From positions 20,014-84,013 of the forward strand of contig CAZSLL010000002.1 in the NCBI GenBank assembly GCA_964607835.1: a stretch of 64,000 nt of DNA. Direction: 5' to 3'. The position numbers and the translations under genes are program-made. Numbering within the stretch: position 1 is the first letter of the stretch; every line of letters starts with the position of its first letter. The stretch comes from an uncultured archaeon (GTDB taxonomy: Archaea > Aenigmatarchaeota > Aenigmatarchaeia > QMZP01). This document shows positions 33,001 through 54,538 of the stretch, piece by piece. Under the pieces are notes generated by a model. It was not told the origin of the DNA. It worked only from the letters and a program-made list of their open reading frames with translations, and made no database searches.

Positions 33001-36000
33001 GAGGCATGGATTAAGGTAATCCAGCCCGACGACTGGCACTACACCAACGACTCCAGGATGATACACAACTCAGGGGGAAGTCCGGATGACGGATACAACC
33101 ACACTGAGCCCCTCATGAGCCAGTACGAGCCACAGCTGCTCTTCTTCAACGTGACCGTGGTCAACAACGATGCCTCCTCCATGGCCATGAACCTCACGGT
33201 AAACGGCCATCTTGTGGCAGAGGACGTGAGCATCCCCCCGGGAAGCAATATCTCTGTTGATGCTGTGGCCAACAACGCCACATTTACCATGCCCGGGGAT
33301 CAGGAAATCAACATTAGCCTTGATGGCAACTACACCTACATGGTCTGGCTGGACTACTCCCTGCTGGACGTTAGCTCGTACATCGAGTACATGAACGACA
33401 CAGAAAAACCCCATTACACCTCCATCTATACATCTGGCCAGGAGGGATTCCATGAGCTCTACATATGCGCCAACGACACAACCGGCCTGGGGGGTTGTGT
33501 GCACTACCAGCTCCTGGCCGCCTCCACCACCCCGCTTTCCATGCTCACCAACATCACCGAGGTCAACATAACAAACATAACCTTCTCCAGCTCAGACTAC
33601 TTCACATTTAACTTCACCGTGGAGCCCCAGTGGGCCAGGGCCCTGGACCTCAACCTGAGCCTGGTCATGGAGAACGGCTGGACCGCCTCCCCAGATTTCA
33701 TAAGGGCAGGGGATGTCCTCAAGGTCGAAAACCACACCAACGAAACCGAGGTGGGCGTGGCCTCGGGCACCCTCCCGGGCAATTATTCGGTCACTCTCCT
33801 CGCCAACTGGACCGAGCTCAACGGATGGACCAACGGAACCAACCAGACCAGCATACTGGTCATGGTCCAGGCCAACCCCTCCATCATAATCGTGGAGGAC
33901 TCCCTGAACTACAACATACGGGGAGGGAACTCTGACAACAGGACCATGAACCTGTTCAGCAACGGAAACGCCAACGCCACAAACGTGACCTACAACTGCA
34001 CCTGGGGCGAGGTGTGCCAGAACTTCACGGTGTCCTTTGACCCTGTCAATATCTCGGTCATGCAGCCCGGGACCACCCAGGGGGTCAACGTGACCATTGC
34101 CGTTCCCACGCTCTACGAGGCCAGCGAGACCGGGTACCCTGGCATAGTGGAGGTCACCGAGGCCAGCGGCTCCTCTGACACAGTATACATAGTGGTAACC
34201 GTGCCCATCAACCTCTCCTGGGAGCACGACCCCGAATCCCTTATCGTCAACCTGAGCCACGACACCTCAGGCGTGCTGGGGGAGATAGACGTCAGGAACA
34301 TAGGCAACGCCCATGTGCTACTGGAGGTGGTGCAGTCAGGCAATGGGACCCCGTACATGCCCCTGGACAGGGATGAGCTCTCCCTGGATATCCTGGAGAG
34401 GGACACCATAACCGTGAACTACAGCCTGCCCTACCTCGCGAACGTGGTGACCTACCAGAGCATGATAAGGACAGAGAACCTCACAGCAGACCCCACCTTC
34501 AGGCAGACCATGGTCACGGCAAATATCTTCCCGTTCTCCATGAACCTCACCTACCCCACACGGCAGAATCCGGTCATGAACGTGTCCGGCAACAGCACAG
34601 TGCACGCCCTCATCAACGTGACATATGCAGGAGAGCCCCTCAACACGAGCGTGGCCTTCAATCTCACCCTGTTCAACGCAACAGGGAGCTGGCCCCTCAA
34701 CATCACCAACGCGACATACTCGAACTACACCGGGCTCTGGAACGTGACCTTTGTGGCGCCCAACATAAGCGAGAACAAGGGATATGACCTCAACGCCAGC
34801 GCCGTGTACGAGCCCGCGAACATATGGCTCCATGACATGGAGCAGAAGGCCGTTATTTACATAGACCGGATCGCCCCTTATGTGGCAATAGACGTGGCCC
34901 CCAGGGTGCCCCAGAACTCCACTGCATACATATACATCAACGTCACTGATTCAGGAGGGGTCTCCAGGGCAGAGCTCAACATGTCCTTCCCTGACAACTC
35001 CACCACGGGATTCCAGGCCGAGCTTGTTAGCAAGAGCGGTGACCTCTACCGGTTCCTGGTCAAGACCAACCTCACAACCCAGATAGGCATGTACTACCTC
35101 AACGCCACTGCATGGGACCTCTCTGAGAACTGGAACTACTCAGAGGCCACCTTTGAGATATACCCGGCAGTGGTGTGGTCAGGCAACTCGGTGGACATGG
35201 AGAAGATACACAGGCCGCCCTTCAACCTCAATTTCACTTTCTGGCTCTCCGGCACCTCTTTCGAGGCCTACAACTTCACCACAGAGCCCGCGGGCCACTA
35301 CAACGAGACCCTTGACATGAGGCCCTATGATATTGGGGTGGGCTTCAGGAACGAGACCCTGACCATGTACGAGGCAGACCTGGTGCAGGACGTTTACAAC
35401 CCCGTGCTCTTCGGAAAGATACCAAGCGTCAAGCTGCCGAGGAAATCCCTGAAGGGATACTATATATACACCACCCCGGTCAACTACAGCTACGCAGGCC
35501 TGGTCATTGACTGCGAGGAATGCTATATTGACGGGGAGTGCAAGGTTTCTGACTTCACCCTTCAGAACCTGGGGCTCTACCGCTGCGACGCCTGGCAGCC
35601 CATGGAGGGATGCACAGGCACATGGTCTGCCATGGACAGCAGCGTGAACGCCAGCCTCTATACCATATCAGTAAACTCCACCTCCATGACCGGGGCATAT
35701 GTCCTGGCCGAGTGGCTGTGCGGGGACGGCGAGTGCGAGGAGGACAAGGGGGAATCCTTCGCCACCTGCCCCACTGACTGTGAGCTGGACATACCAGAGG
35801 AGCAGGAAGGGGGCGAGAGCGGCGGTGGCGGGGCCTCAGGCGGCGCGGCAGGAGGCGCGGCAGGCGGAGCAGCAGGCGAGGAGATATCCCTGTCAGGCCC
35901 TGTGGAGGTCAAGACCACACTCATTGACATAATCCTGGGCCAGGGCGAGTACGAGATACACTCCATGGAGATAGTGAACAGCCAGCCGACCTCCATATCC

Positions 36001-37758: not shown

Positions 37759-37791
37759 CAAGGGAAATCATGAGCATTAGCAGGGAGCGGT

Positions 37792-37821
37792 CTGGCGCCG
37801 CGCAAACATGACTCGCGCCAG
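37792..37821 (+). other. Inverted repeat (7-bp stem CTGGCGC/GCGCCAG, 16-nt loop) 34 nt after the giant-gene stop
   Basis: Seen directly in the sequence. No oligo-T tract follows, so a terminator role is uncertain. Confidence 0.3.
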
Positions 37822-37855
37822 TCGCATAGGAGCGTATGCAGGTGTCAGAGATACC

Positions 37856-37926
37856 TGACTGAAAGCAACGCATGCCGCTTCGAAGGAGCGGACTGAAAGC
37901 AACGCGTGCCGGTTCCGGAGGAACCG
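37856..37926 (+). repeat. Two tandem ~34-nt units 'GACTGAAAGCAACGC[A/G]TGCCG' + short hairpin, in the giant-gene/coiled-coil-gene intergenic region
   Basis: Unit 1 spans 37856-37889 with hairpin CCGCT-tcgaagg-AGCGG. Unit 2 spans 37890-37926 with perfect hairpin CCGGTT-ccggagg-AACCGG. A GGAGGA Shine-Dalgarno-like element lies at 37941-37946, 8 nt before the ATG at 37954. Confidence 0.5.
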
Positions 37927-37953
37927 GGTTGAAAGGAAACGGAGGAGATTCGA

Positions 37954-39903
37954 ATGGGAGAGGATTTGACTGAACTGCAGAAGCAGAGGGAAGACATAAA
38001 GATACTGCTCTCCACCCTTGAGGAGGCTTACAGCGACGCTAGCATAACAGAGGAGCACTACAAGGAAGTGAAGGGCAAGAACGAGAAGAGGCTCAAGGAG
38101 CTGGACGCGAAGATTTCAAAGCTTGAGGCTTCCTCAGCAGGGCCTGCTGAGAAGGAAGGGCCTGCCAAAGAGGGGGCCGAGAAGGCAGAGAAGGAGAAGC
38201 CCGAGGAGCCAAAGCCAGAGAAAGCCAAGCCCAGGAAGAGGGGAAGGCCAAAGGGCTCCAAGTCCAGGCCAAAGCCCGCCCCTGCACATGCATCTCCCTC
38301 CCAGCCCTCTCCTGAATCCGCTCCCGCGCAGCCTTCAACTTCCACAAGCGAGTCCGCCCCCTCCTCAGGTGGGGAAGCCGGGAGCGGGGGCCAGTCCGAC
38401 TACTCGGGCATACCCCAGCCCCTCACTGACATCGCGGGTGAGGGCGGGGGAGCCCTCGGGAGCGGGCCGGACAAGGGCTCAGGTCCGACTGCAGAGCCGG
38501 GCAGCCTGAGGTACACTGCCCAGGAAGTCAAGGACATGCTGGACAAGGTGCTCAAGGAAATCCGGCCTGAGGGTATAGAGGTTGCCCCCAAGGTCGAGAA
38601 GCTTGAGGTCCAGCTCGAAAAGCTCAGGGCCTACATTGAGGCCATGAAGGATGAGAAGTCAGGGTCCAAGGAGGGTATCCAGAGGCTCACCGAGGAGCTG
38701 GGAGAGATGCGCTCCAACGTCTCGGGCATAGACCGCAAGGTGTCAGAGTCCGAGATGAAGGTGCAGGAAATTGACCAGGCCCTGGGAGACCTCAGACCCC
38801 AGAGGTTCACCAAGGCCCTGCAGGACGAGGACAAGACCATCAAGCTCCACGAGGCCAGGCTGGACAAGCTGGACGACCTCAACTCTGTGGTCATGAAGAA
38901 GGTTGGCCAGATAGAGGAGGTGCTCAAGCGGCTGGGAAGCCTGGAGAAGATTGTGAACTTCTCCAAAGAGGCGGCCAAGAGACTCATCGAAATCGAGAAC
39001 AGGGAGAAGAAGATAAATCGGGTGGCTGACAAGATTGACGGCATATTCGTGGACCTCAACAAGAGGCTCCAGGAGTTCGCCCTGTACAAGGCCAAGCAGG
39101 ACACAATGGACGAGCTCTCCCAGGAGATGATGAAGTCCATGGACGAGCTCAACACCAAGATGGAGAAATACGTGGAGAAGTCAGAACTGGAAAGCTTCAA
39201 GGATGCCATCCAGGCTGAGCTGGCCAGCATCAGGACAGCGGGAGGGGCCAGCCCAGAGGTCCAGAAACTGGAGTCCCAGAAGACCGAGATTGAGGGGCTT
39301 ATCGCTATGCTGGACGAGCAGTTCAAGGCTGGTGCCCTGCCAGAGAAGGAGTACAAGAAGACCAAGGCCATCAACCAGCAGAGGCTGGAGAGCATAGACA
39401 AGAAGATACAGGCGGCCCAGTCCGGTCAGGCCGTGTCCGGGGAGACCGAGTCAGGCGCACCTGCACCAACACCGGTTTCAGGGGAAGCCGGCTCCGTGGA
39501 GGCTGCCCCCGAGGAAGGTGGTTCCCCAGAGTCCGCAGCCCCGGAATCCAATCGTCCCGGGGAGAGCGGGGCCTCGGGTGCCAGGCCTGGCGATGGCAAG
39601 GGCCCGGAAGCAAAGCCCACTGAGGAAGGCGGAGCCCCGGAGGGCGGGAGCCAGCCCGCCGGCAGCGAGGCGACCGGGCAGGAACCTGGCCAGGCAATGC
39701 CCAGCCCGCCGGCACCTGAGAAGCAGGGAACGCCCGGGAACGAGGGGGCCTCTGGTACCAAAGACCAGCAAGCCGGAGAGAATGAGCAGACCCTGACCAG
39801 GCAGCAGGAGCTTCTGGCAGAACTCGAGAACTCCTATGCCAGGGGGCTCATAAGCAGGGAGGCCGCGGAAAAGGCAAGGAAACTGGTGAAGGATGACGAG
39901 TAA
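37954..39903 (+). CDS. Cytoplasmic coiled-coil protein with K/E/P-rich and P/G/E/A-rich disordered segments and three SHOCT-like helical motifs (N-terminal, central, C-terminal)
   Basis: A 649-aa ORF with an SD-like site upstream and no TM segment. Coiled-coil heptads run over about residues 190-470. SHOCT-like stretches are 'IKILLSTLEEAYSDASITEEHYKEVKGKNEKRL', 'IEGLIAMLDEQFKAGALPEKEYKKTKAINQQRL' and 'LLAELENSYARGLISREAAEKARKLV'. The stop overlaps the start of the next gene by 11 nt. Confidence 0.78.
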   Translation: MGEDLTELQKQREDIKILLSTLEEAYSDASITEEHYKEVKGKNEKRLKELDAKISKLEASSAGPAEKEGPAKEGAEKAEKEKPEEPKPEKAKPRKRGRPKGSKSRPKPAPAHASPSQPSPESAPAQPSTSTSESAPSSGGEAGSGGQSDYSGIPQPLTDIAGEGGGALGSGPDKGSGPTAEPGSLRYTAQEVKDMLDKVLKEIRPEGIEVAPKVEKLEVQLEKLRAYIEAMKDEKSGSKEGIQRLTEELGEMRSNVSGIDRKVSESEMKVQEIDQALGDLRPQRFTKALQDEDKTIKLHEARLDKLDDLNSVVMKKVGQIEEVLKRLGSLEKIVNFSKEAAKRLIEIENREKKINRVADKIDGIFVDLNKRLQEFALYKAKQDTMDELSQEMMKSMDELNTKMEKYVEKSELESFKDAIQAELASIRTAGGASPEVQKLESQKTEIEGLIAMLDEQFKAGALPEKEYKKTKAINQQRLESIDKKIQAAQSGQAVSGETESGAPAPTPVSGEAGSVEAAPEEGGSPESAAPESNRPGESGASGARPGDGKGPEAKPTEEGGAPEGGSQPAGSEATGQEPGQAMPSPPAPEKQGTPGNEGASGTKDQQAGENEQTLTRQQELLAELENSYARGLISREAAEKARKLVKDDE

Positions 39904-42900
39904 GGGAAGCGGGAATGCAAGGAGAATTGGCCTCCTCTTGGGGGCGCTGGTGCTGGCAGCCCTGCTGCTACACAACCAGAACGCTGTGCAGCAGGAGTAC
40001 GGTGAGGAGTGGTGGAACGGGAGCTGGCACTACAGGGTCAAGATAGATGTCAGCACCGAGAGCATGGAAAGGACTGACTGGCCCGTGGAGTACGAGGCCA
40101 ACTTCACCAGCCTCTTGAATGACCTGGGCGTGAGCGGTGAGTTCGACCCTAACTCCACCAGGGTGCTGGAGGTCAACTCGAGCGGGGGCATCCTCAGGGA
40201 GGTCCCCAGCCAGTTCGACCCTGCACTCGATTACAACTCCACCAGCAACGCAGCCGGTGAGTTGGTTTTCATGCTCAACGGCACCAACGCCCCCGGCACG
40301 ACCAGGTGGTTCTACGTGTACTTCGATACCACGAGCCATGCCAAGTCAGGGGCCACATACGACAGTGAGCTTGAGGCCCAGTGGGACGGAGAGGAGTTCA
40401 ACATCACATTCAACAACCAGGACACAGAACACTACGGATTCTTCGCTTTTGACACCGAGAGGGGAGAGAACACCTCCGGTCTCTACCAGTTCAGGCTCTA
40501 CGACACCTGGAGATTCACCTATCCCAACAGCAACCAGAAGACCAGGGAGTACATACGCACCACTGACGGCTCGAGCGACTTTGGATATGACCTCAGGGAC
40601 AACGCCACGATGGTCGATGGCCCTGCAAGGGTCACGGTGCGCCAGGAGGGCTACGAGGTCTACTTCGGGGAGGCAGACAACCGGACCAACAAGACCTACA
40701 TCAGGAAGACCTATTACTTCTACCCAAACAAGACCTGGTTCGTTGTTGAGCAGGAAATCTTGAACATCAACGGCTCCAGCGTGGACAGGGCCTCCTATGC
40801 AGGGCTCTCGGGATTCGACCTTGAGGGAGCCTACGGAATAGGCTACAAGTGGCTCACCAACTACACCCAGGACCCCGGCTCCTATGTCTCGGGTGGCGGT
40901 GGTACGGGAGTGGAGAGGGTTGGCTACGCCAACCTCTGGGAGAACTCGACATCGAACTTCATGGCAGGCAACTCCACTGACGGGGGGAGCCCTGACTACG
41001 ACCTCATCGGCATCAACCTGAGCATGACCACCATAGAACCCGGCGAGTCCATCAGGAACAGGTTTGTCATGGTTTTCTACCACACCGTGAACAGCCCCAC
41101 ACTGCTCCCTGACACAATGAGAGGCCTGATGAACGGCGTGAGCATAGCAGAGGAGGAGCCTGAGATGTGGGTCATCACCGCCCAGCCCGAGCCTGACCAC
41201 GGAATCTACAACCGCAACGAGTCTGCCATACTGGTGGCAAACGTCACCAGGGATGACTGGTACATCGTGGACCACGCCAACGCCACCCTGGACATGGGCA
41301 CCCCGGGCAGCTCGGCAGACGACATCACCGTGAGCCTCAGGGACGACGGGGCATGCCCTGACCAGGCCGCGGGGGACGGATACCACTCAGCATACTACAA
41401 CTTCAGCGACTCAGAGGCCACTGGGGAATGGAACATGACCGTCAGGCTCTATGACAGGGACGGCGCCTTCCTGAATGAAAGCTATTATACATTCAACATC
41501 ACCGACGTGCTGGAGCTCTCCATAGACATCTGGAACGTAACAGGCATATGGAGGGTGGAGAACGCCACGGTCAACGTGACCAACTACATGCAGGACATCC
41601 AGGTCCCGGGAGCCACCCTGAACTGCACCTCGAACCAGGGCCAGATACCACAGGAGAACATAACTGACAACGGTGACGGCACCTATGTTGTCACCTTCGA
41701 GACGCCCCTGGACTACGGCCTCTACCCCCTCAACTGCTCTGCCCAGAAGGACGGGAGCTGGGGATGGCAGCTCGAGAACTACACGGTCGAGGCCCCTGAG
41801 ACAAACATCTCCCTGACCACAGACCCGTCACTCTACCATGCCTACAACGTCACCTATTTCAGCAACGAGTCATTCGGTCTCAAGGTTACCCTGAGGAATC
41901 TGGAGAACTCCACTGCCTACTGGGCCAACATTACCCTGGATGTGCCCGGCAACCTTACCTCGAACTCCACGCTCGAGACGTGCGGGGAGAACCTCCTCAT
42001 CGGCCTGACCTGCGTCAGGCACTTCAACATCACTGTTCTTAACAACACCATCAACGACACCTACCAGATAGGCGTCACCATAAACTGGACAAACAGGGTG
42101 GGGACCCAGGACTCCAACACCACCGCAGTGGACGTGATTGTCCACGAGACCCCAACTCTGAACGTGCTCGAGGAGAACGTGACAGGAATCCTCCCGCCAG
42201 GGGCAAACAGCCAGAAGATAGAAACCCTGGTTGCCAGGTCAGACGGTAACAACAGGGTATACAACATCAACTTCACCAAGGTGGGCCTGGGAAATTTCAC
42301 CATTGGCTTCTCCCCGCAGGAGACCGGGATGCTCGGGCCGGGCGAGAGCCAGCCTGTCGAGGTAACGGTAACCGTGCCCGAGGGCCAGTTCCCGGGAATC
42401 TACTACGGCTTCATAAACGCCACCTCTGACAACGGGGGCTACGATGTACTGAACACCACCATAATAGTCACAGGGACCAACCTCACCATAAACGCCAGCC
42501 CCGAGACCTACTCTGCCATGTACGTCACGGCATTCACCAACGAGAGCATGGAGATTGCGGTCAATGTCACCAACATCGGCAACACCACGGCCTTCAACAC
42601 CTACGTCAACATGACCTTTCCCGGGAACTGGTACATCAATGAGACCAGCCACTCCTGCGGGAACATGACCAGGGGAAGCACGTGCATGTCCTACTACTAC
42701 ATAAACATAACCGAGCTAACCCACGCCGGGAGCTATGACGTCGAGGCAATGATATTCTGGGAGGACATAGGAATCTCCTGGTTCGACCGCAACGACACCG
42801 TGAATGTGACAGTGGTCTCCAATGCCACCCTCGAGGTGCTGGAGGACCAGTTTGTCAAGACCATGGAGCACGACAACACATCTCTCCTTGGTGAGCTCAC

Positions 42901-45778
42901 GCTTCGCTCCACAGGCAACGATGATTTGTCAGATGTCAACTTCTCCATATCAGGCATATTCAGCGAGTTCGTGATAGGCTTCAACAAGAGCTACCCGTTC
43001 ACCATGGCCCCGGGCGATGTGTTTACTGTCAGGGTGAACGCCACCACCTATCCCGGATTCTCCCCAGGGGATTATGACGGATACATCAACGTGACCTCGT
43101 CCAACGACGGCTACAAACCAGTTGAGCTCAACATAACCGTGCCCCAGAATGGCTCCTGGACCATGAACACCACCTTCTGCGAGCACGCCCAGAGCCCCAA
43201 CTCAGGCACTGTTTGCGATGTGCTCATAAACAACACCGGCAACATAATGCTCAACTTCACCATCGAGCCCCCGGCAGGCGCCAACCACACAACGCCCAGC
43301 AACGCCACCCTCAACATTAGCAAGCAGTCATCTGACGTGCTGTCCATATTCTACGACATGGGCACAGAGGCAGGGGAGGGCTTCTTCTTCACCAACTACA
43401 CCGTTGCCCCCAACCAGAGCGCAGGAGAGCCCGGCAACCTGATCCTTTCCATACTCCTCAACCCCTTCGTCGAGCCCCTGGTGGAGATAGGCCTGACTCC
43501 TCCTGACCAGCAGCAGGCAGGCAGCACCGCCATGGTCATCAATGTCACCAGCCAGTCAGGGGCAGAGTTCGACGATGTGAGGCTCACTGTTCAGAGGCCT
43601 GACGGCACCAACGACACCATGTTGCTGGGTTTCAGCCACCAGGTGTTCTGGTACGGCTGCGACTTCAGCATCAGCGACCCTGGCGACAAGCTCTGCTTCC
43701 AGGTAACGTACCCGGGAACCCTTCCTGGCAACACCAGCGAGCGGGGCAACTACACCGTGTTCGTTTACGCCAACGACACTTACAGGGTCAACACCACCAA
43801 CACCTCCACGCTCAGGATTTTCACTCGCTACATGGCCAACGTCAACATGCCCGATGTTATCCAGGGAAGCTGGGAGAGCATTGAGTACAGGGCCACAGAC
43901 TACCTGGGCGCCGCCCTGCCCTACGCCTCGGTCAACCTCACGGTTAAGGACCCCAACAACCGGATAGTGTACATGCTCTCGGGGAAAGAGTACACAGCCG
44001 ACGAGCAGGGCTGGGTGGGGGACAACATATTCGTCATCCCGGGCCATGCCACAGAGGGCGAGTACAGGGTTCTCACCAACGGCTCCTGGACTGACCCTGA
44101 CCTGGGCATGCTGGTGAGCAATGAGACCGAGGCCATGTTCAATGTGACGGCCAACCAGGAGCTCACCGGAAAGGTGGCCGTGCCCAGCCCCATATACATG
44201 GACAACACCATGACGGTCTCTGTTATAGTGCTGGAGAACCTTCACGAGCCTGTGGACCCTGACGAGATAAACGTGACCATATACTACACAGAGGGCTACG
44301 GACTTCAGGAGTGGAGGACGCTTGACCTCTCTGACTTCAACCGCACCCAGGAGGGATTCTATGAGTACTCAGAGGTCCTGAGCAGCGTGCTCACGGGCAG
44401 CTACCTGGCCCTGCTAAGGGTCTCCCTGGGAGAGAGGGAGACCTATGACATCCAGCCCTTCAGGGTGGCCTCAGGAGGGCCCTACGACGTCATCCTGGAC
44501 CTTGGCGAGAGCGAGGTTCAGCAGGGAAGCACCCTTCCCTTTGACATCACCATATGGAACAAGGGAGAGGTGGACCACAAGGACGTGGTTGCCACCTACT
44601 GGGTGTACGGCAGCGGCCAGAGCTGGGACTCTTCCAGCTTCTCCACCAACATAGTGGGAGGTCAGAACAAGACATTTGGCAGGACTTCTTTCATATACTC
44701 CAATCAGCCCCCTGGCCTCTACACCCTCAACGCAGAGGTGCTCTACGACCCCAACCAGCCTCCTGCCACCGCAAACGCCACTTTCCTGGTCACCAGCACC
44801 GCAGAAGAAGATGAAGGAGGCGGCGGGGGCGGGGCTCCTGCCCCCGGAGGCGCAGCGCCCGCGGCCCCCAGGGGTACCCTCAACATCACAGAGGCCCCTG
44901 ACGTTATAGGGGCAATGGTGGGGCTTCCCAAACTCTTCAGTATAGAGGTGGAGGCAGTGGGCGGGCCGGTGACAGGAGTGGAGCTGGACTTCCAGGGAAT
45001 CCCTGAATCCTGGGTAACCGTGGAGCCCGTCAACCTGAGCAGGATTTCCTCAGGAGGGACAGCAATATTCACGGTCCAGCTCCTGGTTCCCAGGGGGGAG
45101 TCAGGGGACAGGAAGGTCAAGGTGGTGGCCCGCTCCAAGGAGTCCACTGACGACAGCGATTTCACGCTGAGGATATTCACATCCAGGCAGGACCTCATCA
45201 GCTTCGAGCTGGCCAGGCTCAGGGCCAAGCTCGAGGAGCTCAGGGAGCGCTCAAGGAAGGCGGCTGAGGCCGGGTTTGACACAGGCAGGGTGGACGACAC
45301 CCTGGATGATGCCGAGAGGGAGATAGAGCTCGCAGAGCAGTACCTGAGGGAGGAGCTCTACGATGCCTCCCTGGAATCAGTCTATACTGCCTGGAAGCTC
45401 CTGGACAAGGCCGAGGATTTGCTCGACCTGATGCTGGCAGGGTTCTCGCTTCCCTGGTGGCTCATTGTCATCATAATTTTCGCCCTGGTAACGGTGGTGC
45501 TGTTCTTCCTGTACAGGAAGATAAGCAGAAACCTCTCGGTCATGGTCAGGGGAAGGCTCTCCGAAGCCAGGCAGGTGGCAGGTACCATAAAGGGCTCAGG
45601 CGCTGAGGTGGACTCCCTCAGGGACGAGAAGGCCAGGGTCACCAGGATGCTCAAACTCCTGGAAACCCAGCACAAGCAGGGCATAATATCCAAGGAGGCT
45701 TACGACAGCCTGAGAAAGAGGAGCGAGCAGAGGCTGGGGGATATTGACAAGAAGATAAGGCAGTCCCTGTCAGGCTAG
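39893..45778 (+). CDS. 1961-aa surface protein: N-terminal signal/anchor, DUF2341-like domain, sequon-rich CARDB/Ig-like repeats, Gly/Ala/Pro linker, membrane-proximal helical stalk, TM helix, SHOCT-like cytoplasmic tail
   Basis: The N-terminus 'MTSKGSGNARRIGLLLGALVLAALLL' is followed by 'WHYRVKIDVS..TDWPVEYEANF...' (DUF2341-like). The linker is 'EEDEGGGGGGAPAPGGAAPAAP'. The TM segment 'LPWWLIVIIIFALVTVVLFFLY' is at nt 45445-45513. The tail '..RMLKLLETQHKQGIISKEAYDSLRKRSEQRL' is SHOCT-like. Confidence 0.85.
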   Translation: MTSKGSGNARRIGLLLGALVLAALLLHNQNAVQQEYGEEWWNGSWHYRVKIDVSTESMERTDWPVEYEANFTSLLNDLGVSGEFDPNSTRVLEVNSSGGILREVPSQFDPALDYNSTSNAAGELVFMLNGTNAPGTTRWFYVYFDTTSHAKSGATYDSELEAQWDGEEFNITFNNQDTEHYGFFAFDTERGENTSGLYQFRLYDTWRFTYPNSNQKTREYIRTTDGSSDFGYDLRDNATMVDGPARVTVRQEGYEVYFGEADNRTNKTYIRKTYYFYPNKTWFVVEQEILNINGSSVDRASYAGLSGFDLEGAYGIGYKWLTNYTQDPGSYVSGGGGTGVERVGYANLWENSTSNFMAGNSTDGGSPDYDLIGINLSMTTIEPGESIRNRFVMVFYHTVNSPTLLPDTMRGLMNGVSIAEEEPEMWVITAQPEPDHGIYNRNESAILVANVTRDDWYIVDHANATLDMGTPGSSADDITVSLRDDGACPDQAAGDGYHSAYYNFSDSEATGEWNMTVRLYDRDGAFLNESYYTFNITDVLELSIDIWNVTGIWRVENATVNVTNYMQDIQVPGATLNCTSNQGQIPQENITDNGDGTYVVTFETPLDYGLYPLNCSAQKDGSWGWQLENYTVEAPETNISLTTDPSLYHAYNVTYFSNESFGLKVTLRNLENSTAYWANITLDVPGNLTSNSTLETCGENLLIGLTCVRHFNITVLNNTINDTYQIGVTINWTNRVGTQDSNTTAVDVIVHETPTLNVLEENVTGILPPGANSQKIETLVARSDGNNRVYNINFTKVGLGNFTIGFSPQETGMLGPGESQPVEVTVTVPEGQFPGIYYGFINATSDNGGYDVLNTTIIVTGTNLTINASPETYSAMYVTAFTNESMEIAVNVTNIGNTTAFNTYVNMTFPGNWYINETSHSCGNMTRGSTCMSYYYINITELTHAGSYDVEAMIFWEDIGISWFDRNDTVNVTVVSNATLEVLEDQFVKTMEHDNTSLLGELTLRSTGNDDLSDVNFSISGIFSEFVIGFNKSYPFTMAPGDVFTVRVNATTYPGFSPGDYDGYINVTSSNDGYKPVELNITVPQNGSWTMNTTFCEHAQSPNSGTVCDVLINNTGNIMLNFTIEPPAGANHTTPSNATLNISKQSSDVLSIFYDMGTEAGEGFFFTNYTVAPNQSAGEPGNLILSILLNPFVEPLVEIGLTPPDQQQAGSTAMVINVTSQSGAEFDDVRLTVQRPDGTNDTMLLGFSHQVFWYGCDFSISDPGDKLCFQVTYPGTLPGNTSERGNYTVFVYANDTYRVNTTNTSTLRIFTRYMANVNMPDVIQGSWESIEYRATDYLGAALPYASVNLTVKDPNNRIVYMLSGKEYTADEQGWVGDNIFVIPGHATEGEYRVLTNGSWTDPDLGMLVSNETEAMFNVTANQELTGKVAVPSPIYMDNTMTVSVIVLENLHEPVDPDEINVTIYYTEGYGLQEWRTLDLSDFNRTQEGFYEYSEVLSSVLTGSYLALLRVSLGERETYDIQPFRVASGGPYDVILDLGESEVQQGSTLPFDITIWNKGEVDHKDVVATYWVYGSGQSWDSSSFSTNIVGGQNKTFGRTSFIYSNQPPGLYTLNAEVLYDPNQPPATANATFLVTSTAEEDEGGGGGGAPAPGGAAPAAPRGTLNITEAPDVIGAMVGLPKLFSIEVEAVGGPVTGVELDFQGIPESWVTVEPVNLSRISSGGTAIFTVQLLVPRGESGDRKVKVVARSKESTDDSDFTLRIFTSRQDLISFELARLRAKLEELRERSRKAAEAGFDTGRVDDTLDDAEREIELAEQYLREELYDASLESVYTAWKLLDKAEDLLDLMLAGFSLPWWLIVIIIFALVTVVLFFLYRKISRNLSVMVRGRLSEARQVAGTIKGSGAEVDSLRDEKARVTRMLKLLETQHKQGIISKEAYDSLRKRSEQRLGDIDKKIRQSLSG

Positions 45779-46602
45779 GATGGCGCGCCGGAAGCACCGA
45801 AGACCTCCTGCTCAGGGAATACCTCGATGCCCTTTCCTGTGATTATCTGCATGGCCACGACCTTCTTCCTGTGCTCAGCCCCCCTCATCTTGAGGACCTC
45901 GACTGCGGATTCCCTGACGTCCCCGCGCCGTATGTTGTAGAAGACTATGACTCCGTCAGCCAGGAACTCCTCCACCCCGGTCCTGCTGAATGCCGAGGGG
46001 CTCTGGTCGGTTTCTGTGATGAGGAAGGATGTGGCCCCGCTCTTCTCGAAGAACCGGAAAAGCTGCTCTATGTAGCTCCTGTAGTTCTGCTCCCTGCTCA
46101 CGAAGTATGACGATATCGCGCTGAGCGAGTCAAGGACAATTATATCGGGCCTGAAGCCCTTGGGAATGATTAGGGGCTCCACGTTTATCATGAGCTCGCC
46201 CCTCTGCTTGGCCATCATGGCGTCCATGGACTTGCTGATGTCGTACGACCTGAACCTCTTGAGCACGAGCTTTCCTGAGGCCTCCATCTCTCTTGGGTCC
46301 CAGCCAAAGTCCTCCATGTGCTCCCTGAGCCTGTCCTCGTGCTCCTCGAATGACATGTATATGCATTTCTTTCCTGCCTGGACCGCATTGGTGATGAGCT
46401 GGAGGCAGCCTATGGTCTTTCCTGAGCCCGCTCCACCAGAGACCAGGACGTTGGAGCCCACTGGAATCCCTTTGGTGAACAGCCTATCCAGGCCCTCGAT
46501 GCCTGTCCTGATGAAACCCCTCCTCAGGGGCTTCTCCTTCTTCAGGGCCTTTCCAGAGCTGCTTTTTTGCTTCCCCTTTGCCTGGCTCTTTTCCTTTGCC
46601 AC
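45775..46602 (-). CDS. KaiC-like / RecA-superfamily single-domain ATPase with Lys-rich N-terminal tail
   Basis: 'GIEGLDRLFTKGIPVGSNVLVSGGAGSGKT' is the classic KaiC/RadA P-loop context. The stop overlaps the convergent upstream gene by 4 nt, and the gene lies 36 nt downstream of the 46639..50742 gene on the same strand. Confidence 0.85.
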   Translation of the reverse strand: MAKEKSQAKGKQKSSSGKALKKEKPLRRGFIRTGIEGLDRLFTKGIPVGSNVLVSGGAGSGKTIGCLQLITNAVQAGKKCIYMSFEEHEDRLREHMEDFGWDPREMEASGKLVLKRFRSYDISKSMDAMMAKQRGELMINVEPLIIPKGFRPDIIVLDSLSAISSYFVSREQNYRSYIEQLFRFFEKSGATSFLITETDQSPSAFSRTGVEEFLADGVIVFYNIRRGDVRESAVEVLKMRGAEHRKKVVAMQIITGKGIEVFPEQEVFGASGAPS

Positions 46603-46638: not shown

Positions 46639-49600
46639 TTATATCCTGACGCCCTGCCTCATCATGTATATCGCCTTCTCCACCCGTACAAGCCTGGACC
46701 TGTGCCTGTCCATGACTGCCTCATAGTCAGCCCTTCCCAGGGAGCCAATGCTGAAATACCTCTTCTGGGCATGGGACATCAACTCCTTTATGGAGCCCCT
46801 CTCTGACTCCAGCTCCCTGAGCTTCTTCCTGAGCCTGGCCCCACTCCTGAGCCTCCTGAGCCCGAGCCATGCAGGCGGAAGGGCCAGCGCCGCAGCCAGG
46901 AGGTATGCCCAGTTTTCCGTTGCTGCCCTGGAAGCCTGCTCCAGGGGGGAGGAGCTAAGGCCCCTCTCCATGGCAGCCTCTGCCCTGGCCTCCTCCACGA
47001 GCTCCAGTGCCTCACCCAGCCTCTGTTCGGCTTCTATGTAGCTCTCTGAACCGAAAAGGGAGATTCCTTCCTCAAGGGCCTCCCTGGCCTCCAGCACATC
47101 AAGCCCTTCCTCCCCGGCCCCGAGTATTTCCTGCTCTGCATGGTCAATAAGCATGTCCGCTTCCCTGGCTGCATTGAATATCACGCCCACCTGCCTGGCC
47201 AGGGCCAGGGCTGCCGATTCCTCTCCCCTGGCCTGCATCAGCCTGGCTTCGTTGAGCACGTCCGAGACGTGAGAGGTCTTGAAGCCGCTTCCTGCCATGT
47301 CCGCTATGACCAGCTCTGCCTCCCGGATCTCCTGCTCCAGCGTGGCCTGGACATCCTGGGCCGCTACCAGACCTGACATCAGGACAATGCCCGCCAGGGC
47401 GACTGCCGCGATTCCCAGGCCTAATGAACCCTTCCTCTTCCTGAGCATGTCCATACTCTTGTCGATTTCCGCGGTCTCCTGCCTCATCCTCTTCATTATG
47501 GCCTCGTAAAGCCCTCTTCCGACACCGTCCCCGCTGAAGTACCTCCTCTGGGTGTCCTTCATGAACCTGGATATCTCTTCCCTTTCTCTCCTGAGGCTCT
47601 TCAGGGTCTTCCTGACAGAGCCCCCTCCTGATATTAGCCTTGCCTTGGCCCTCTTTATGTCAGCCAGCCTTGCCTCGTAGTCCTGCACTGCCCTGGAATA
47701 GGTGTCCTTCCCCACCCGGGGCCTGGCGCTGAAGTAGGCCTTCTGCAGGTTGACTATCATTCGCTCCAGTCCCCTCTCCTCCAGTCTGAGGCTGCTTATC
47801 CTTGCCCTGAGAAGCCTGGTTGCCGTATACCTCCTTCCCAGAAGCAGGGCCGCTGCCAGCCCTGCGGCCCCCATGCCAAGGAACACCCAGTTCTCCCTGA
47901 TACCCGAGAGCACCCACAATAACCCGTAGGTCTCCAGTGAGAAGGAGGCCCTGGCACTCAGTGCACGCTCCTCTGCCCTCTGGTAGTCCCCCCTCTGGAA
48001 TGCCATCTCAGCAAGCCTTAGAAGACTCTCTGACTCCGGTGCCTCTATGCCGTTCTCCTTTGCGCTGGATATGTCCCCCTCCAGTCCAGCCATCATGCCC
48101 TCGACCCTGAAGGCCAGCTCTGCCTTCTCGATTACCTGCTCTGCAATCTCCCTGGCTGCCTCGTAGTCCCACTCGCCTGCCAGGGCATCCATCCTCTCTA
48201 TGCTGGCGTTCATGTTCTCTGCAGAGTACCCTGCCTCCTGCATTTCCGCGGAAAGCTCCCTGGCCCTGTCCAGCAGGTCTGACTCCTCTCCTGTGCTAAC
48301 CACTGACACAGTCATGGAGTGAGAACCCGAAAGGGTCCGGTTGAGGGTCCTCCCCCCGCCCGAGAGCTCCATGGAGAGGTTGTACTGGCCCTGGGAAATG
48401 TACCCAGGCGCCTCAAGGGTAACTATGAACCTCACGGTGTCGCCCTGGTTCACCCCGTTCCTCTCCTCAGGGGACACTGTGACATATGTCAGGGGGTAGC
48501 CCGAGACCTCCAGGGACAGGCTGTCTGATGTAAAGCTGAGGCCGTACTCTATGTTCACAGAGAAGCTATGGTTGCTCCCCCTCTCAAGCTCCAGTCTTTG
48601 CGGCGCGCTCAGTGAAAGGGCGTTCTCGGTTACCGGTGCCCCTCCCCCGCTTATGACCGTGGTACCGGCGGAGCTTCCTCCTCCTCCGTCCTGGCAGTCG
48701 CTGTCAGTGGAGGAGCTGCAGCCCAGGCCGCACACCCCGTCAGTGCTGCTGCATGAGACCCCGATGACAGCAGAGTCAGATGCGTTGGAGCCCTCTGAGC
48801 AGCTTGAGTTCACCATTAGAGCAACTGCCCCTGCGCCGGCGCTGGCCGGGTCTATGCTAAGGGACAGTGTGCTGGTGTAACTGGCCCCCTGGGAGAGGCT
48901 GCCCACGAAATGGCTGGCATTGCCTGATGTGTTGGAGAACCCTGAAGGAAGGCTGAAATTCAGCCGCACTCCGGTAGCGGTCTCGTTCCCGATGTTCTTG
49001 ACCCTCGCTGAGACGTTCACCCCTGTATCGCTCTGGCTTACAGATGTGGGGGCCCGGGTTATCTCGAGCTCAAGGTAGGGCCCGCCCACGTATGATATGA
49101 GGGTGGCGTTGGCCACCCTCTCGGCAGGCTCTGCGTTTTCGCTTGCCGCACCTATGGTGAGGTTGACCGCATACTCGTAGGCCTGGGAGGTGGCGGTGGC
49201 GTTGACCATTATGCTGAGGTTGCTGCCTGCAGCCACGTCAAAGCTGTCAGGGTTGGATAGGTTGTACTCGGTGTTGGTGTAGGTTGAGGTTATCCCGAAG
49301 CTGAGGGGATAGTCCCCTGTGTTGGTTATGGTGAGCACCCCAAGGGCGCCCTCCTCGTTGATGTATACGTAGGTTGTCCCGAGCCCCTGCGGATTCACGG
49401 ACCACGTGTAGTCGTAATCAACTGTGAGGCTGTACTCGCTGGAGTTGCCAGAATGCCCCATGGTGTCATTGGCCCATATCCTGTAGTACCACATACCGTC
49501 AGGGGCGGGCACGCCGAAGGAGGCGTTGTACTGGCCAGAGAGGTTGCCCATGGTCACATTCGACCACGTGGAGACCGACTCCCTCCTGTACTGGAGAATG

Positions 49601-50825: not shown

Positions 50826-52070
50826 ATGAAAGAAAAGGGAATCATGAGGAGAATCGATTTTCTGGTCATCCCTTCCATAATCATCCTTTTCCTGGCTGCC
50901 CTGGCCATAGACTCCTATCAGCCAGGAGCCCTCAGCCTTGCGGGAAAACCGCATGATGGGAGGCTGCTCATGGCCATGGGAAGCTTCGAGGGCAATGTGC
51001 CTGGGGAGGCCCTGATATGGGTGCTGGGGCCGGATGGCAGCCACGAGGAGCTCTCCCTGGAGGGCTCCAATGTTTGCCACAGGGTGCTGTCAGCTGACCT
51101 GGACCATGACGGTGTGCCTGAGCTATATGCCGCCACTGGCCAGAACGCATCAGTGTTCTCTCTCACCCCATCAGGTAATGGATGGGATACCCAGTTGATA
51201 TGGGAGCCGGACTGCAGCAGGGTGAGGGACCTGGAGGCAGGGGACGTGGACGGTGACGGTGCACAGGAGCTGGTGGCAGTGACCCACTTGCCAGGAAAGA
51301 TTGCCGTCATCAGGCCGGATGGTGCCCAGTGGCAGGTCACAGAGCTCCTCTCGCTCAATGGCACCTACATCCATGAGGTCGAGCTGTATGATGCCGACCA
51401 GGATGGGTCAGACGAGATATTCTCAACTCCATCAGAACCCAACCAGGCCAAGGGCCTGAGCCAGCCCGGAAGGATTCTCATGCACAGCTGGAACGGCACG
51501 GGCTTCTCTGTGAGGGAGCTGGCCTCCTTCAGCACCACCCACGCAAAGGAGATTTCTATGGGAGACCCTGACAACGATGGCCTGCCTGAGCTCCTGGCCG
51601 CTGTCCAAGGAAATGCCACCCGCCATCAGGTCCCTGGGGAGGGTGTGGTGAAGCTTGTCATAGAAACTCCCCTTCGGATAATGCTCTGGGACATGGCTGA
51701 CCTGTCCGCAGAGGGGAGTGTCATTACAGAACTCCCTGGCATAGGGGCAAGGGCGCTTGCAGTTGGTGATGCTAACAATGACGGCCTGAACGAGCTCCTC
51801 TTGGGCACCGAGACCGCAGGGCTCCACCTTCTCATGCACAGGAATGGCTCCTGGAAAACGGAGTCCATCGACTCCTCCTTAAGGGGCAACATAGGAGGCG
51901 CCATCATCGCAGACCTTAATGGCGACGGCCTCAATGAGGTGGTGGCCAGTTCTGATTCCCTGGGTCTGGTCAGGTCATACTCCCGTGAATCAGGCGTTTG
52001 GCAAGGCGAGACCGTGCTTGAAACAGGGGGGCACTGGGTATGGGCCATGTCATGGGGGGATGCCCTGTGA
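50826..52070 (+). CDS. Membrane-anchored FG-GAP repeat (integrin-alpha-like beta-propeller) protein
   Basis: An N-terminal TM segment 'IDFLVIPSIIILFLAALAI' is followed by at least six 'D.D.DG..EL' Ca-binding-type FG-GAP repeats: DLDHDGVPELY, DVDGDGAQELV, DADQDGSDEIF, DPDNDGLPELL, DANNDGLNELL and DLNGDGLNEVV. Confidence 0.8.
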   Translation: MKEKGIMRRIDFLVIPSIIILFLAALAIDSYQPGALSLAGKPHDGRLLMAMGSFEGNVPGEALIWVLGPDGSHEELSLEGSNVCHRVLSADLDHDGVPELYAATGQNASVFSLTPSGNGWDTQLIWEPDCSRVRDLEAGDVDGDGAQELVAVTHLPGKIAVIRPDGAQWQVTELLSLNGTYIHEVELYDADQDGSDEIFSTPSEPNQAKGLSQPGRILMHSWNGTGFSVRELASFSTTHAKEISMGDPDNDGLPELLAAVQGNATRHQVPGEGVVKLVIETPLRIMLWDMADLSAEGSVITELPGIGARALAVGDANNDGLNELLLGTETAGLHLLMHRNGSWKTESIDSSLRGNIGGAIIADLNGDGLNEVVASSDSLGLVRSYSRESGVWQGETVLETGGHWVWAMSWGDAL

Positions 52071-53449
52071 GAAGGCTCGCCCTGCTCCTTCCCGCCATCG
52101 TTGCTGCCATGGCAATCCCCCTGGCCTACACCGGCCAGCTCGCCCCTGCAGAGGAGTATTCGTGCGAGGGGTGCAGCCTCCTCCTGGTCACAGCCGACAC
52201 CCTGAGGGCAGACCATGTCTCCTCCTACGGATACTTCCAGCAAACCACCCCCAACATTGATGCTTTGGCCTCCAGGGGCATCCTTTTCGAGCAGGCTTAC
52301 ACCCAGGTTCCCTTCACCCCGCCCTCGCACTGGACCATTATGACAGGGCTCTACCCCTTCCATCACGGAATGTACCTTCCCACCAACGAGAGCAGGCTCG
52401 AGACCCTGGCCACAAGGCTGTCCAGGTCAGGCTATGACACAGCGGCCTTCACTGCCAGCTACATGGTGGGCAGGCTGGAAAGGGGGTTCGGTGTCTTCGA
52501 GGTCCCTGCCTTCAGGACAGAGAAGGAGTACAGGCCCGCCACGAACGTCACCGAATCAGCGCTCAGCTGGCTCATGCAGAGAGACGGGGAGGGACCATTC
52601 TTCCTCTGGGTGCACTACTTCGATGCCCACAGCCCCTACCAGCCCCCTGATGGGCATGACATATACGACTATTCCATGGAGCCCAGGTACGCGGATGAGC
52701 GGTACTCCAGAGCGGGCATAGACAACTTCAGGCCCATCAGGGATGACATCGCAAGGTATGACGGGGAGGTCCGCTACATGGACAACCAGCTCGGCAGGCT
52801 CCTTGGCGAGCTGGAGTCCCTCGGCCTCTCTGAGAACACAATGGTGGCGGTAGTGTCTGACCACGGGGAATGTTTTGGCGAGCACCTTTTCTCTGACTTC
52901 GGGTATGAGATGACCGGGCCCTGCCTGTTCCATGACAAGACCCTCTACCAGGAGGAGGTGCATGTCCCCATGGTCTTGTACAACCCCAGGGCCAGGAGGT
53001 CTTCAGGCACCAGGATTGGCGAGATAGTGGAGACCGCTGACCTCGCTCCCACGCTGCTCGAGACCCTGTGCCTCATTCCCCCTGAGGGACTGGACGGCAG
53101 GAGCATGGTCCCTCTCATAGAGGGCAACTCCTCGGGCTTCGGAAGGGCGTTCATGCAGATAAGGCCGGGAGAGACCGGCATATTCGCCTACGGCCTCCTT
53201 TCGCCTGAATGGAAGTTCGTGAGGGCAGGCCTCTCACTGGACCGCCAGGGTCATGTCCAGGAGCACGAGATGCTGTTTGACAGGAAGAACGACCCGCGTG
53301 AGATGGTCAATGCCCTGGGTCAGAGGCCGGGCCCTGCACAGGAGATGGAGGAAGAGCTCGCGGAAGTCATGGGCAGCGGGCTCTCTGAAAGGGTGTACAT
53401 AGACAGCAGGACCGAGGAGATGCTCAGGATGCTGGGGTACCTTGCCTGA
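52040..53449 (+). CDS. Sulfatase-family (alkaline-phosphatase superfamily) exported enzyme with Thr/His substitutions at the formylglycine-motif positions
   Basis: An N-terminal signal-like segment is followed by 'LLLVTADTLRADHVSSYGY' (sulfatase metal-binding N-terminus) and 'VPFTPPSHWTIMTGLYP'. The latter sits where the sulfatase signature C/S-x-P-S-R...LTGR lies, but reads T-P-P-S-H. Downstream sulfatase-like blocks include 'PFFLWVHYFDAHSPY' and 'VVSDHGE'. The start overlaps the preceding gene by 31 nt; an in-frame ATG 12 nt downstream is an alternative. Confidence 0.75.
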   Translation: MGHVMGGCPVRRLALLLPAIVAAMAIPLAYTGQLAPAEEYSCEGCSLLLVTADTLRADHVSSYGYFQQTTPNIDALASRGILFEQAYTQVPFTPPSHWTIMTGLYPFHHGMYLPTNESRLETLATRLSRSGYDTAAFTASYMVGRLERGFGVFEVPAFRTEKEYRPATNVTESALSWLMQRDGEGPFFLWVHYFDAHSPYQPPDGHDIYDYSMEPRYADERYSRAGIDNFRPIRDDIARYDGEVRYMDNQLGRLLGELESLGLSENTMVAVVSDHGECFGEHLFSDFGYEMTGPCLFHDKTLYQEEVHVPMVLYNPRARRSSGTRIGEIVETADLAPTLLETLCLIPPEGLDGRSMVPLIEGNSSGFGRAFMQIRPGETGIFAYGLLSPEWKFVRAGLSLDRQGHVQEHEMLFDRKNDPREMVNALGQRPGPAQEMEEELAEVMGSGLSERVYIDSRTEEMLRMLGYLA

Positions 53450-53464
53450 TATTACACTACGCCA

Positions 53465-53521
53465 GCACTACGGTTAAACACATCATCTTAAAAGTTATAT
53501 ATTTCACAGAATAATATAAAC
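53465..53521 (+). promoter_or_regulatory. AT-rich putative promoter (TATA-like 'AAAGTTATATATTT') upstream of the 53522 gene
   Basis: An AT-rich island sits directly 5' of the ORF, with the TATA-like element about 20-32 nt before the ATG. Confidence 0.45.
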
Positions 53522-53857
53522 ATGGCTGAACTCAGGAACGTGGACATACAGGGAAGCGACATCATCGTCAACATGCGAATCACCAGGGACGAGTACAATC
53601 TCCTGGGTCAGAGGACAGGTGACATTGCGCTCATTCCCGCTGGCGACAGGGAGCTCGACCACACGCTGACCTCGGGCAAGCTCGGCAACAGCAACCGGAT
53701 AATGCTGCCCAAGAAGCTCCTTAACATGGAGGGCATAGTGCATCTGGAGAAAAAGCTTGCCTCCAGGTTTTTCAGGGTGAACGGAAGCGTGTACCTGCTC
53801 ATAAGGCTCAGGGAATCCGATGTGGGCATTCCCATGTTCATGGAGGAAGGCAAATGA
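53522..53857 (+). CDS. Small hypothetical protein (111 aa), possibly AbrB/SpoVT-like swapped-hairpin DNA-binding fold
   Basis: 'NRIMLPKKLLNMEGI' resembles the AbrB/SpoVT 'grvtIPkeiReklgi.eGd' motif. A 4-nt ATGA overlap with the downstream KaiC-like gene indicates an operon. The fold assignment is weak. Confidence 0.55.
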   Translation: MAELRNVDIQGSDIIVNMRITRDEYNLLGQRTGDIALIPAGDRELDHTLTSGKLGNSNRIMLPKKLLNMEGIVHLEKKLASRFFRVNGSVYLLIRLRESDVGIPMFMEEGK

Positions 53858-54522: not shown

Positions 54523-54538
54523 CCTGAGACCGGTTGGC

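Follow-up and report, generated by a model that had tools for sequence, protein, structure and literature searches.

Whether large surface proteins encoded side by side act on their own or as parts of one apparatus is the question raised by a 64,000-nucleotide stretch of DNA from an uncultured archaeon of the Aenigmatarchaeota (assembly GCA_964607835.1, contig CAZSLL010000002.1, positions 20,014 to 84,013; hereafter the window). Five consecutive genes of the window, called here G, A, B, D and C from left to right, encode three large surface proteins (G, B and C), a coiled-coil protein (A) and a KaiC-like ATPase (D). A preliminary description of this DNA, in which every quoted sequence string proved to be in its place, had noted that G, B and C carry similar blocks immediately outside their transmembrane (TM) segments and had taken the three proteins for parts of one surface assembly. 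We propose that these blocks are probably conserved base modules next to the membrane, belonging to a SPEARE-type cell-surface apparatus in a DPANN archaeon. The idea of a single assembly is thereby upheld in part, since the case is strong for G, A and B, through synteny, minimal gene triads and a shared motif, and weak for C.

The giant protein G and the G-A-B cluster

SPEARE giant proteins were described in the Nanohaloarchaeota by Hamm et al. 2019 (PMC6642349), who also pointed to Aenigmarchaeota and further DPANN lineages as having related intracellular regions. They were re-read in PMC10266531 as about 75 immunoglobulin (Ig)-like domains followed by a TM segment, a VirB4/TraG-like ATPase and a coiled coil. 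Using as reference the C terminus of the Ca. Nanohaloarchaeum antarcticus SPEARE, taken from SI Fig. S18 of PMC6642349, we obtained a BLASTP alignment with G at 33% identity over 758 columns (about 730 amino acids, or aa; E=4e-110). This alignment is collinear through the pre-linker domain, a poly-Gly linker, both Ig domains, the TM segment, the ATPase and the tail. G has the SPEARE topology, with about 12,170 aa followed by a single hydrophobic helix, KKKKK and the ATPase. As in SPEARE, a giant ectodomain with LamG and many Ig-like domains leads to one TM segment near the C terminus, and a cytoplasmic P-loop ATPase is followed by a terminal helical segment. Pfam matches in the G ectodomain include Laminin_G_3 (two copies; E=1.7e-46), DUF2341 (two copies), MG2, Big_7 and NEW3, and Foldseek matched the Ig domains of G to tandem Ig/FnIII/PapD-like folds. 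Judged by its C-terminal homology, its topology and its LamG and adhesion domains, G is a SPEARE-family giant protein. Scanning the full protein against Pfam returned neither a protease, serine proteases included, nor an endonuclease family. Because such domains are disputed for the SPEARE family in PMC10266531, their absence does not exclude G from it. The "restriction enzyme" region of SPEARE corresponds in G to a HerA/VirB4-like ATPase.

This ATPase domain carries a Walker A (GSTGAGKS) and a Walker B (VYDEVH) motif and scores 37 bits against Pfam DUF87, the HerA central domain, for which the cut-off is 23.2 bits. A profile search of the PDB returned HerA chains (E=6e-5 to 4e-4), and Foldseek matched the model of the domain to HerA hexamers (e.g., 4d2i; E=1.4e-10). 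The NCBIfam equivalogs CedD, HerA, TraB, TraC and TraD all scored far below their cut-offs against G. The Walker motifs, the DUF87 match and the fold matches are reminiscent of the ring-forming HerA/FtsK/VirB4 ATPases, from which G differs in that its TM segment is preceded by an ectodomain of more than 12,000 aa. VirD4/TraD-type coupling proteins also have their TM anchor N-terminal to the ATPase, as does G. In the window we saw neither a HerA partner nuclease nor any conjugation or Ced genes.

Bases 1 to 33 of the window contain no stop codon in the reading frame of G, which therefore continues past the left edge; with the start of the open reading frame (ORF) lying outside the window, no signal peptide is visible. 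With at least 12,574 aa, G already exceeds the published SPEARE maxima of 8,553 and 9,409 aa (PMC6642349 and PMC10266531), and it lies in an Aenigmatarchaeota-like genome. In these two papers, SPEAREs of 8,553 to 9,409 aa are called the largest, or among the largest, proteins in Archaea. At the position of the G linker, the Nha. antarcticus SPEARE has a run of ten Gly residues, and it lacks the 4-Cys motif that G has at this site. A second Cys segment of G (DCEECYIDGEC...LYRCDAWQPMEGC; aa 11822-11895, 35497..35718) lies just ahead of the 4-Cys motif, and its LG.Y.CD..W....EGC part is kept in the Nha. antarcticus protein. At the other end, the G tail (..KELKKRGVDTSDVEFELKLARDKI..) resembles the hairpin of the B stalk (hhalign E=5.4e-7) and stalkA of C (48103..48294; E=8.7e-6).

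To place these genes in context, a locus scan limited to one genome per species yielded at least 587 relatives, of which the best 80 loci were taken for analysis. The loci carry the labels Aenigmatarchaeota, Nanohalarchaeota, Altiarchaeota, Micrarchaeota, Parvarchaeota, Undinarchaeota, Woesearchaeota and Nanoarchaeota; the top matches of the window proteins themselves are to Candidatus Aenigmatarchaeota and other DPANN archaea. Giant genes are the rule, as the G-type ORF is open across the whole 10-kb upstream flank in 72 of the 80 loci. In 74 of the 76 loci with room for it, the G-type gene is followed directly by an A-like gene; of 53 loci, 42 have a B-like gene downstream, which in 38 is on the same strand. 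The G, A and B genes thus form a conserved cluster across DPANN archaea and are co-inherited. The co-occurrence of G, B and C genes in other genomes, which the preliminary description had named as a check, is borne out for G and B, together with A, across DPANN; C adjoins them in three close relatives alone. In the window, A and B overlap by 11 nucleotides (39893..39903), an arrangement compatible with translational coupling.

Two loci seemed at first sight to carry the giant gene as two genes. The split in L002 (~9300..10000) is an artefact of runs of N in the scaffold, and that in L003 (JGI Ga0115863_1004635, ~182..190) consists of just one in-frame stop, directly after GIYTGDIIT within Ig1 of the G homologue; the window protein has Tyr at this position. 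This stop may be a sequencing error, the mark of a pseudogene or a recoding event. Neither split speaks for a two-gene architecture.

Three loci contain minimal triads (L073, 9686..14459; L075, 2453..7253; L080, 3832..8504). The minimal G protein, of 727 to 730 aa, consists of a signal peptide, a Cys-rich stretch, a Pro/Gly linker and the Ig-Ig-TM-ATPase series; the short SPEARE versions of 655 to 717 aa in PMC6642349 match it. The minimal A protein has about 510 to 530 aa, and the minimal B protein, of 328 to 349 aa, has a signal peptide, one Ig domain, a stalk, a TM segment and the motif discussed below. What the minimal triads retain is thus A together with exactly those modules of G and B that lie next to the membrane. 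Giant and minimal systems occur together within one metagenome-assembled genome in two cases (L080 with L051 and L075 with L047).

The linker boundary and the bases below it

Landmarks were counted in 72 G-type ORFs that have enough upstream sequence and come from different species. The 4-Cys motif is present in 70 of them, as CG[DN]xxC-x10-C-x3-C, the Gly/Pro/Ala linker in 65, and the motif followed by the linker in 63, at about 280 aa ahead of the TM segment. A protein search with the G C terminus found 54 homologues, which show CG[DN]GxCExxxGE..xCPxDC and, about 260 to 280 aa ahead of the TM segment, a Gly-rich stretch. No further copy of the Cys motif or the linker was found in the 180,462 aa of upstream ectodomain scanned in G-type genes. 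The linkers have a median length of 40 aa (range, 28 to 65), with 26% Gly, 23% Pro and 17% Ala. Each linker is the sole window of its protein rich in Gly, Ala, Ser and Pro, a single one being present in the 12,574 aa of G and a single one in the 1,961 aa of B. Searches of Pfam and NCBIfam with the Cys motifs matched no family. The Cys spacing is 4/10/3 in G and 6/3/7 in C, each conserved inside its own family; C-x6-C-x3-C-x7-C is intact in all nine C orthologues examined.

The membrane-proximal grammar that the preliminary description attributed to all three proteins stands for the Gly-rich linker, the Ig-like domain or domains and the TM segment, and fails in two details. The Cys motif is absent from B and from 36 of 37 B-type proteins, and the G base, made of two Ig domains, a TM segment and a HerA-like ATPase, has no helical stalk. 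Among 41 B-type proteins, 19 have a Gly/Pro-rich linker 207 to 227 aa before the TM segment and none elsewhere. Of the remaining 22 we inspected 17: three are minimal versions without an ectodomain at the linker position, and those of full length carry at this position a spacer of low complexity, mostly rich in Pro, Thr and Ser.

The linker also marks a step in the density of N-x-S/T sequons, which falls about five-fold there in all three families. Per 100 aa, the distal and base values are 6.2 and 1.0 in the G family, 6.6 and 1.7 in the B family, and 5.3 and 1.8 in the C family. In AlphaFold2 (AF2) models, the predicted local distance difference test (pLDDT) score is below 50 in the linkers and 53 to 72 in the Cys motif of G, and the confident parts are the flanking Ig domains, the stalk helices, the TM helices and the ATPase. 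Conserved and disordered, the linker thus divides the protein into a distal part rich in sequons and a base poor in them.

One alternative reading of this boundary, which we regard as possible if somewhat doubtful, is that the Cys motif and Gly linker of G form a processing site at which the ectodomain is cleaved, to stay attached non-covalently or to be shed, and that the linkers of B and C serve the same purpose. PMC6642349 reports peptides from the ~550-kDa extracytoplasmic part of SPEARE in gel fractions above 315 kDa and those from its TM and cytoplasmic part only in fractions below 315 kDa, for which the authors raised processing, while also allowing for a preparation artefact. The linker, as the single disordered and position-conserved segment between the two parts, would be a suitable site; against this, its length and sequence are free to vary, and it has no conserved cleavage motif. 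Such processing would be compatible with the base modules that we propose.

Below the linker, the bases of B and C align weakly by BLASTP (29% over 90 aa; E=2.5e-5). Their family profiles match across the linker, Ig domain, stalk and TM segment (hhalign E=1.2e-15), and each of the two proximal Ig domains has the other as its best match (E=3.9e-13). By these comparisons, the C base is a paralogue of the B base. In C, moreover, the stalk is duplicated (stalkA against loop1, E=1.5e-11; stalkB against loop2, E=2.6e-9), and C therefore contains two B-type stalk-TM-motif units; its cytoplasmic and loop part (46648..47805, minus strand) runs m1, m2, TM2, second stalk, TM3, m3. The base module of Ig, stalk, TM and motif, in this order, is found once in B and two times in C, as well as in 40 B-type ORFs and the minimal proteins of 328 to 349 aa; it is not found in G, with its Ig-Ig-TM-ATPase series. 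When 1.84 billion proteins were searched with a profile of the B base, 1,250 cluster representatives matched. Most of the matches listed have about 1,900 to 2,100 aa with a C-terminal base or about 320 to 370 aa, and among the full-length ones listed the base is always C-terminal. B-type length is uniform across DPANN lineages, at about 1,890 to 2,100 aa, and the N-terminal region of these proteins is well conserved (hidden Markov model, HMM, E down to 1e-200); the G ectodomain is highly variable by contrast.

The Ig folds of the bases are ordinary PapD/MSP/FnIII-like beta-sandwiches. The proximal Ig domain of B, through its NPCBM_assoc match, resembles the NEW3/NPCBM-associated and CARDB Ig domains; unlike generic NEW3/CARDB repeats, the base Ig domains are family-specific, sequon-poor and fixed in position. 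Neither Ig1 of G nor the proximal Ig domain of C, taken alone, gave a Pfam match, and Foldseek matched only the Ig domain of the C model to the PDB, the helical stalk remaining without a match. Outside its base, C has LamG_3 and NEW3 domains.

The shared cytoplasmic motif and the surroundings of C

A has no TM segment and no Cys in its 649 aa. What connects it with two of the surface proteins is a cytoplasmic motif of about 55 aa, L..L...Y/F..G.IS.E.Y......RL..ID.KI, which the preliminary description had missed and which is common to A (three copies), the B tail (one copy) and C (three copies, m1 to m3). In profile comparisons, the second copy of A matches the B tail (E=4.6e-12) and C m1 (E=6.1e-7), the B tail matches C m2 (E=2.3e-6), and the three C copies are mutually related (E<=2.9e-13). 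Coiled-coil controls were essentially negative, the best pair being C m2 against the A segment cc1 (E=0.0021; 13% probability). The core of the B-tail copy, QGIISKEAY, is nearly invariant in the family alignment. We ran an HMM of the motif over 3,659 ORF segments from all loci and recovered 76 of 81 A-type ORFs, 40 B-type ORFs with one copy each, 7 C-type ORFs, 8 small neighboring ORFs and no G-type ORF. The small ORFs with the motif (about 90 to 180 aa) adjoin A-like genes (L034, 7468..8004; L039, 10282..10743; L071, 2074..2373; L074, 14124..14764; L004, 12207..12497); they could encode additional small partners or be fragments of A-like genes.

The core of the motif resembles the consensus of SHOCT (PF09851), a short C-terminal motif of the oligomerization type, and the copy in B lies, as in SHOCT, at the cytoplasmic C terminus of a membrane protein; the alignment with the B tail covers positions 3 to 26 of the 28-position model. 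The unit found here differs in that it spans about 55 aa, with an additional helix at its N terminus and the RL..ID.KI helix at its C terminus, and in being also internal and multicopy, in A and C. The remaining six motif copies gave no match in the SHOCT scan. Assignments of the motif to SHOCT, CdvA or GvpG were rejected, every match being under threshold. Since the score lies under the Pfam gathering threshold, we call the motif SHOCT-like only.

The genomic surroundings of C, of which 13 homologues were found, are of another kind. C adjoins G-A-B in the window and in the three close relatives mentioned above (L004/L007, L005/L010 and L008), and the homologues at 33 to 37% identity lie beside KaiC-like ATPases with no G, A or B nearby. 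As a member of the conserved triad, C is thus ruled out for distant relatives by its separate loci. KaiC-like genes stand beside C homologues in L004, L005, L087 and L088, and in L088 three of them follow C in a row. In the window, D lies directly downstream of C on the same, minus strand. To the right of C follow genes for an FG-GAP protein, a sulfatase, a second KaiC-like ATPase and prenyltransferases, as well as for a response regulator, dCache/HAMP sensor kinases and a PAS protein; the C homologue in L087 is likewise beside FG-GAP, sulfatase, UbiA prenyltransferase and response-regulator genes, as in the window at 50826..58266. We conclude that C is primarily associated with KaiC-like ATPases, and that C and KaiC may form a separate, signal-linked module.

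Two further features of the neighborhood concern the genes after B. In the window, B and D are convergent and their stop codons overlap by 4 nucleotides (45775..45778). Where no C is adjacent, B is followed by genes for a ParA/CbiA-type ATPase, a protein of about 219 aa without a Pfam match and a long protein of 768 to at least 901 aa, which has a weak Rod_CreS match in L003. This trio occupies 1942..5999 in L001, 9301..11780 in L003 and 1..4288 in L005, where it sits past the C/kinase block. These may be further conserved neighbors of the cluster.

Table. Genes and sequence features in the window, with the basis of each assignment (positions count from the first base of the window).
Feature	Residues	Position	Strand	Basis or remark
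G, SPEARE-family giant surface protein	at least 12,574 aa	34..37758	+	ORF list, Pfam, SPEARE alignment
G, 4-Cys motif CGDGECEEDKGESFATCPTDC	11896-11916	35719..35781	+	C-x4-C-x10-C-x3-C
G, Gly/Ala-rich linker	11917-11949	35782..35880	+	pLDDT <50 in AF2 model
G, base, Ig1 and Ig2	11950-12062 and 12063-12168	35881..36537	+	AF2 beta-sandwiches, pLDDT 80-90
G, TM helix, then KKKKK		36559..36645	+	Sequence; long helix in AF2 model
G, HerA/FtsK-superfamily P-loop ATPase, cytoplasmic		36730..37533	+	Pfam DUF87
G, C-terminal tail, three helices		37549..37755	+	AF2 helices
A, coiled-coil protein, cytoplasmic	649 aa	37954..39903	+	ORF list
A, motif copies		37960..38133, 39253..39429, 39781..39900	+	Profile homology
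A, conserved helical core		38506..39258	+	Family alignment
B, surface protein	1,961 aa	39893..45778	+	ORF list
B, Gly/Pro/Ala linker AEEDEGGGGGGAPAPGGAAPAAP	1637-1659	44801..44869	+	Sole window of B rich in Gly, Ala, Ser and Pro
B, NEW3-like Ig		44870..45184	+	Pfam NPCBM_assoc match
B, helical stalk		45185..45442	+	Part of B base
B, TM		45449..45517	+	Part of B base
B, cytoplasmic tail motif, SHOCT-like	1903-1961	45599..45775	+	Family alignment
D, KaiC-like ATPase		45775..46602	-	Pfam KaiC PF06745, E=1.1e-53
C, surface protein, three TM segments	1,367 aa	46639..50742	-	Convergent with B
C, 4-Cys motif CSSTDGVCGLGCSSSTDSDC	664-683	48694..48753	-	C-x6-C-x3-C-x7-C
C, Gly/Ser linker GGGGSSAG...GGGAP	684-703	within 48634..48753	-	pLDDT <50
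C, proximal Ig		48295..48633	-	AF2 beta-sandwich
C, helical stalk		47908..48294	-	Five helices in AF2 model
C, TM1		47818..47892	-	Base 47818..48633
C, motif m1		47623..47805	-	Profile comparison
C, motif m2		47434..47613	-	Profile comparison
C, second stalk copy		46933..47352	-	Between TM2 and TM3
C, motif m3		46648..46836	-	After TM3

A candidate surface apparatus and its rivals

If the blocks are the bases of one apparatus, its parts might work together as follows. In G, a huge, lineage-variable, sequon-rich distal part is joined to the conserved base by the 4-Cys knob and the linker of about 40 aa; in B, the ectodomain and linker are followed by a base of Ig domain, stalk, TM segment and SHOCT-like cytoplasmic motif. 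By analogy with HerA-type ATPases, the ATPase domains of G may oligomerize as a ring under the membrane, and A could cross-link the B tails, plus the C tails where present, via the shared motif beside this ring. The linkers would be flexible joints, or possibly processing sites, and as joints they would let glycosylated adhesive arms extend past the envelope to the host cell.

Several observations weigh against this proposal. BLASTP gave no alignment of the G base with those of B and C, to which profile comparisons alone connect it. Ig1 of G matches the proximal Ig domains of C (E=2e-6) and B (E=5e-5) in profile comparisons, and non-proximal Ig domains of B at E=2.1e-7 and 1e-6; it is thus only generically related to the B and C Ig domains. 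The specific match of Ig2 is to the B domain ahead of the linker (Ig_pre; E=2.9e-13). Pairwise comparison of the membrane-proximal regions, a check named in the preliminary description, thus supports a relation for B and C and leaves G outside; the B and C bases are homologous, and G has the same design without a specifically related module. The Cys motifs of G and C likewise show no demonstrable homology, the comparison of the motifs alone giving an hhalign E of 0.11. The hairpin-like helices shared by the G tail and the B and C stalks are topologically puzzling, being cytoplasmic in G and extracellular in B and C according to predicted topology. More distant relatives do not have C adjacent to G-A-B. 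In cultivated nanohaloarchaea, the giant gene is reported in PMC10266531 to be followed by a gene for a VirB4/TraG-like ATPase and not for an A-like protein, and the triad may therefore not be universal. Finally, the match of the B tail to SHOCT reaches only 13.4 bits (E=0.069), the cut-off being 27 bits.

Some of these points would also be expected if common ancestry and a generic anchor design had produced the likeness with no joint complex, a reading that we consider unlikely for the locus as a whole. B and C would then be paralogues and the three proteins independent, each with an exposed glycosylated part, a spacer clearing the envelope or S-layer, and an unglycosylated Ig and TM anchor. 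That Ig1 of G is as close to non-proximal B domains as to the proximal ones of B and C, that no homology is demonstrable between the G and C Cys motifs, that distant C homologues lie away from G-A-B, and that NEW3/CARDB-type Ig domains are abundant in all three proteins are all in keeping with such a design. Against it stand the G-A-B gene order kept over several DPANN phyla, the A/B overlap in the window, minimal triads made of the bases plus A, and a motif that, apart from a few small neighboring ORFs, is confined to A, B and C. Moreover, the B-base matches listed are B-type architectures (full-length, fragments and mini versions) and not an unrelated mixture. Synteny, minimal triads and motif restriction thus weaken the generic design for G, A and B; for C, it is a better reading than a joint complex. 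As for a chance arrangement of low-complexity Gly runs and Ig domains, Gly-rich linkers are common among secreted proteins and Ig-like domains numerous in all three proteins here, but the statistics of conservation refute this explanation, whose probability we regard as negligible: each protein has a single linker, which keeps its distance from the TM segment over dozens of species, is absent from the remaining ectodomain scanned and coincides with the sequon step in all three families.

Beyond the base modules of a surface apparatus, we tentatively consider a more far-reaching possibility, that G-A-B is the core of a trans-envelope machine across DPANN, in which an ATPase ring scaffolded by A would move macromolecules between symbiont and host. 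SPEARE might then be the most conspicuous subunit of this machine, each ring ATPase being connected to two Ig domains outside. A could bind the B tails, and the C tails where present, through the motif of about 55 aa. The Cys knob and Gly linker would perhaps be a hinge or a maturation site toward host-binding glycosylated arms. We can only speculate that the cargo might be DNA, protein or lipid-linked material, and that the minimal triads might represent an ancestral, arm-less form.

In the excerpts of the SPEARE literature searched, we found no prior description of the A and B neighbors, the shared motif, the Cys/linker landmark or the sequon boundary, which other papers may contain, and our search for literature on the triad or on DUF87 in DPANN returned nothing past the SPEARE papers. 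The triad, the base and linker grammar, and the shared motif therefore look like a new system-level description of the SPEARE family, of which G, by the sequence relations above, is a new and very large member.

SPEARE-type giants are leading candidates for the attachment of DPANN archaea to their hosts and for the exploitation of these hosts. The analysis adds A and B as candidate partners of the giant protein, almost always encoded alongside it, and locates the conserved part in the membrane-proximal base, not in the enormous ectodomain. The minimal triads, with proteins of about 730, 520 and 340 aa, are tractable versions for structural and biochemical work, and the single Gly-rich linker provides a precise, conserved landmark that can be tested as a hinge or a cleavage site.

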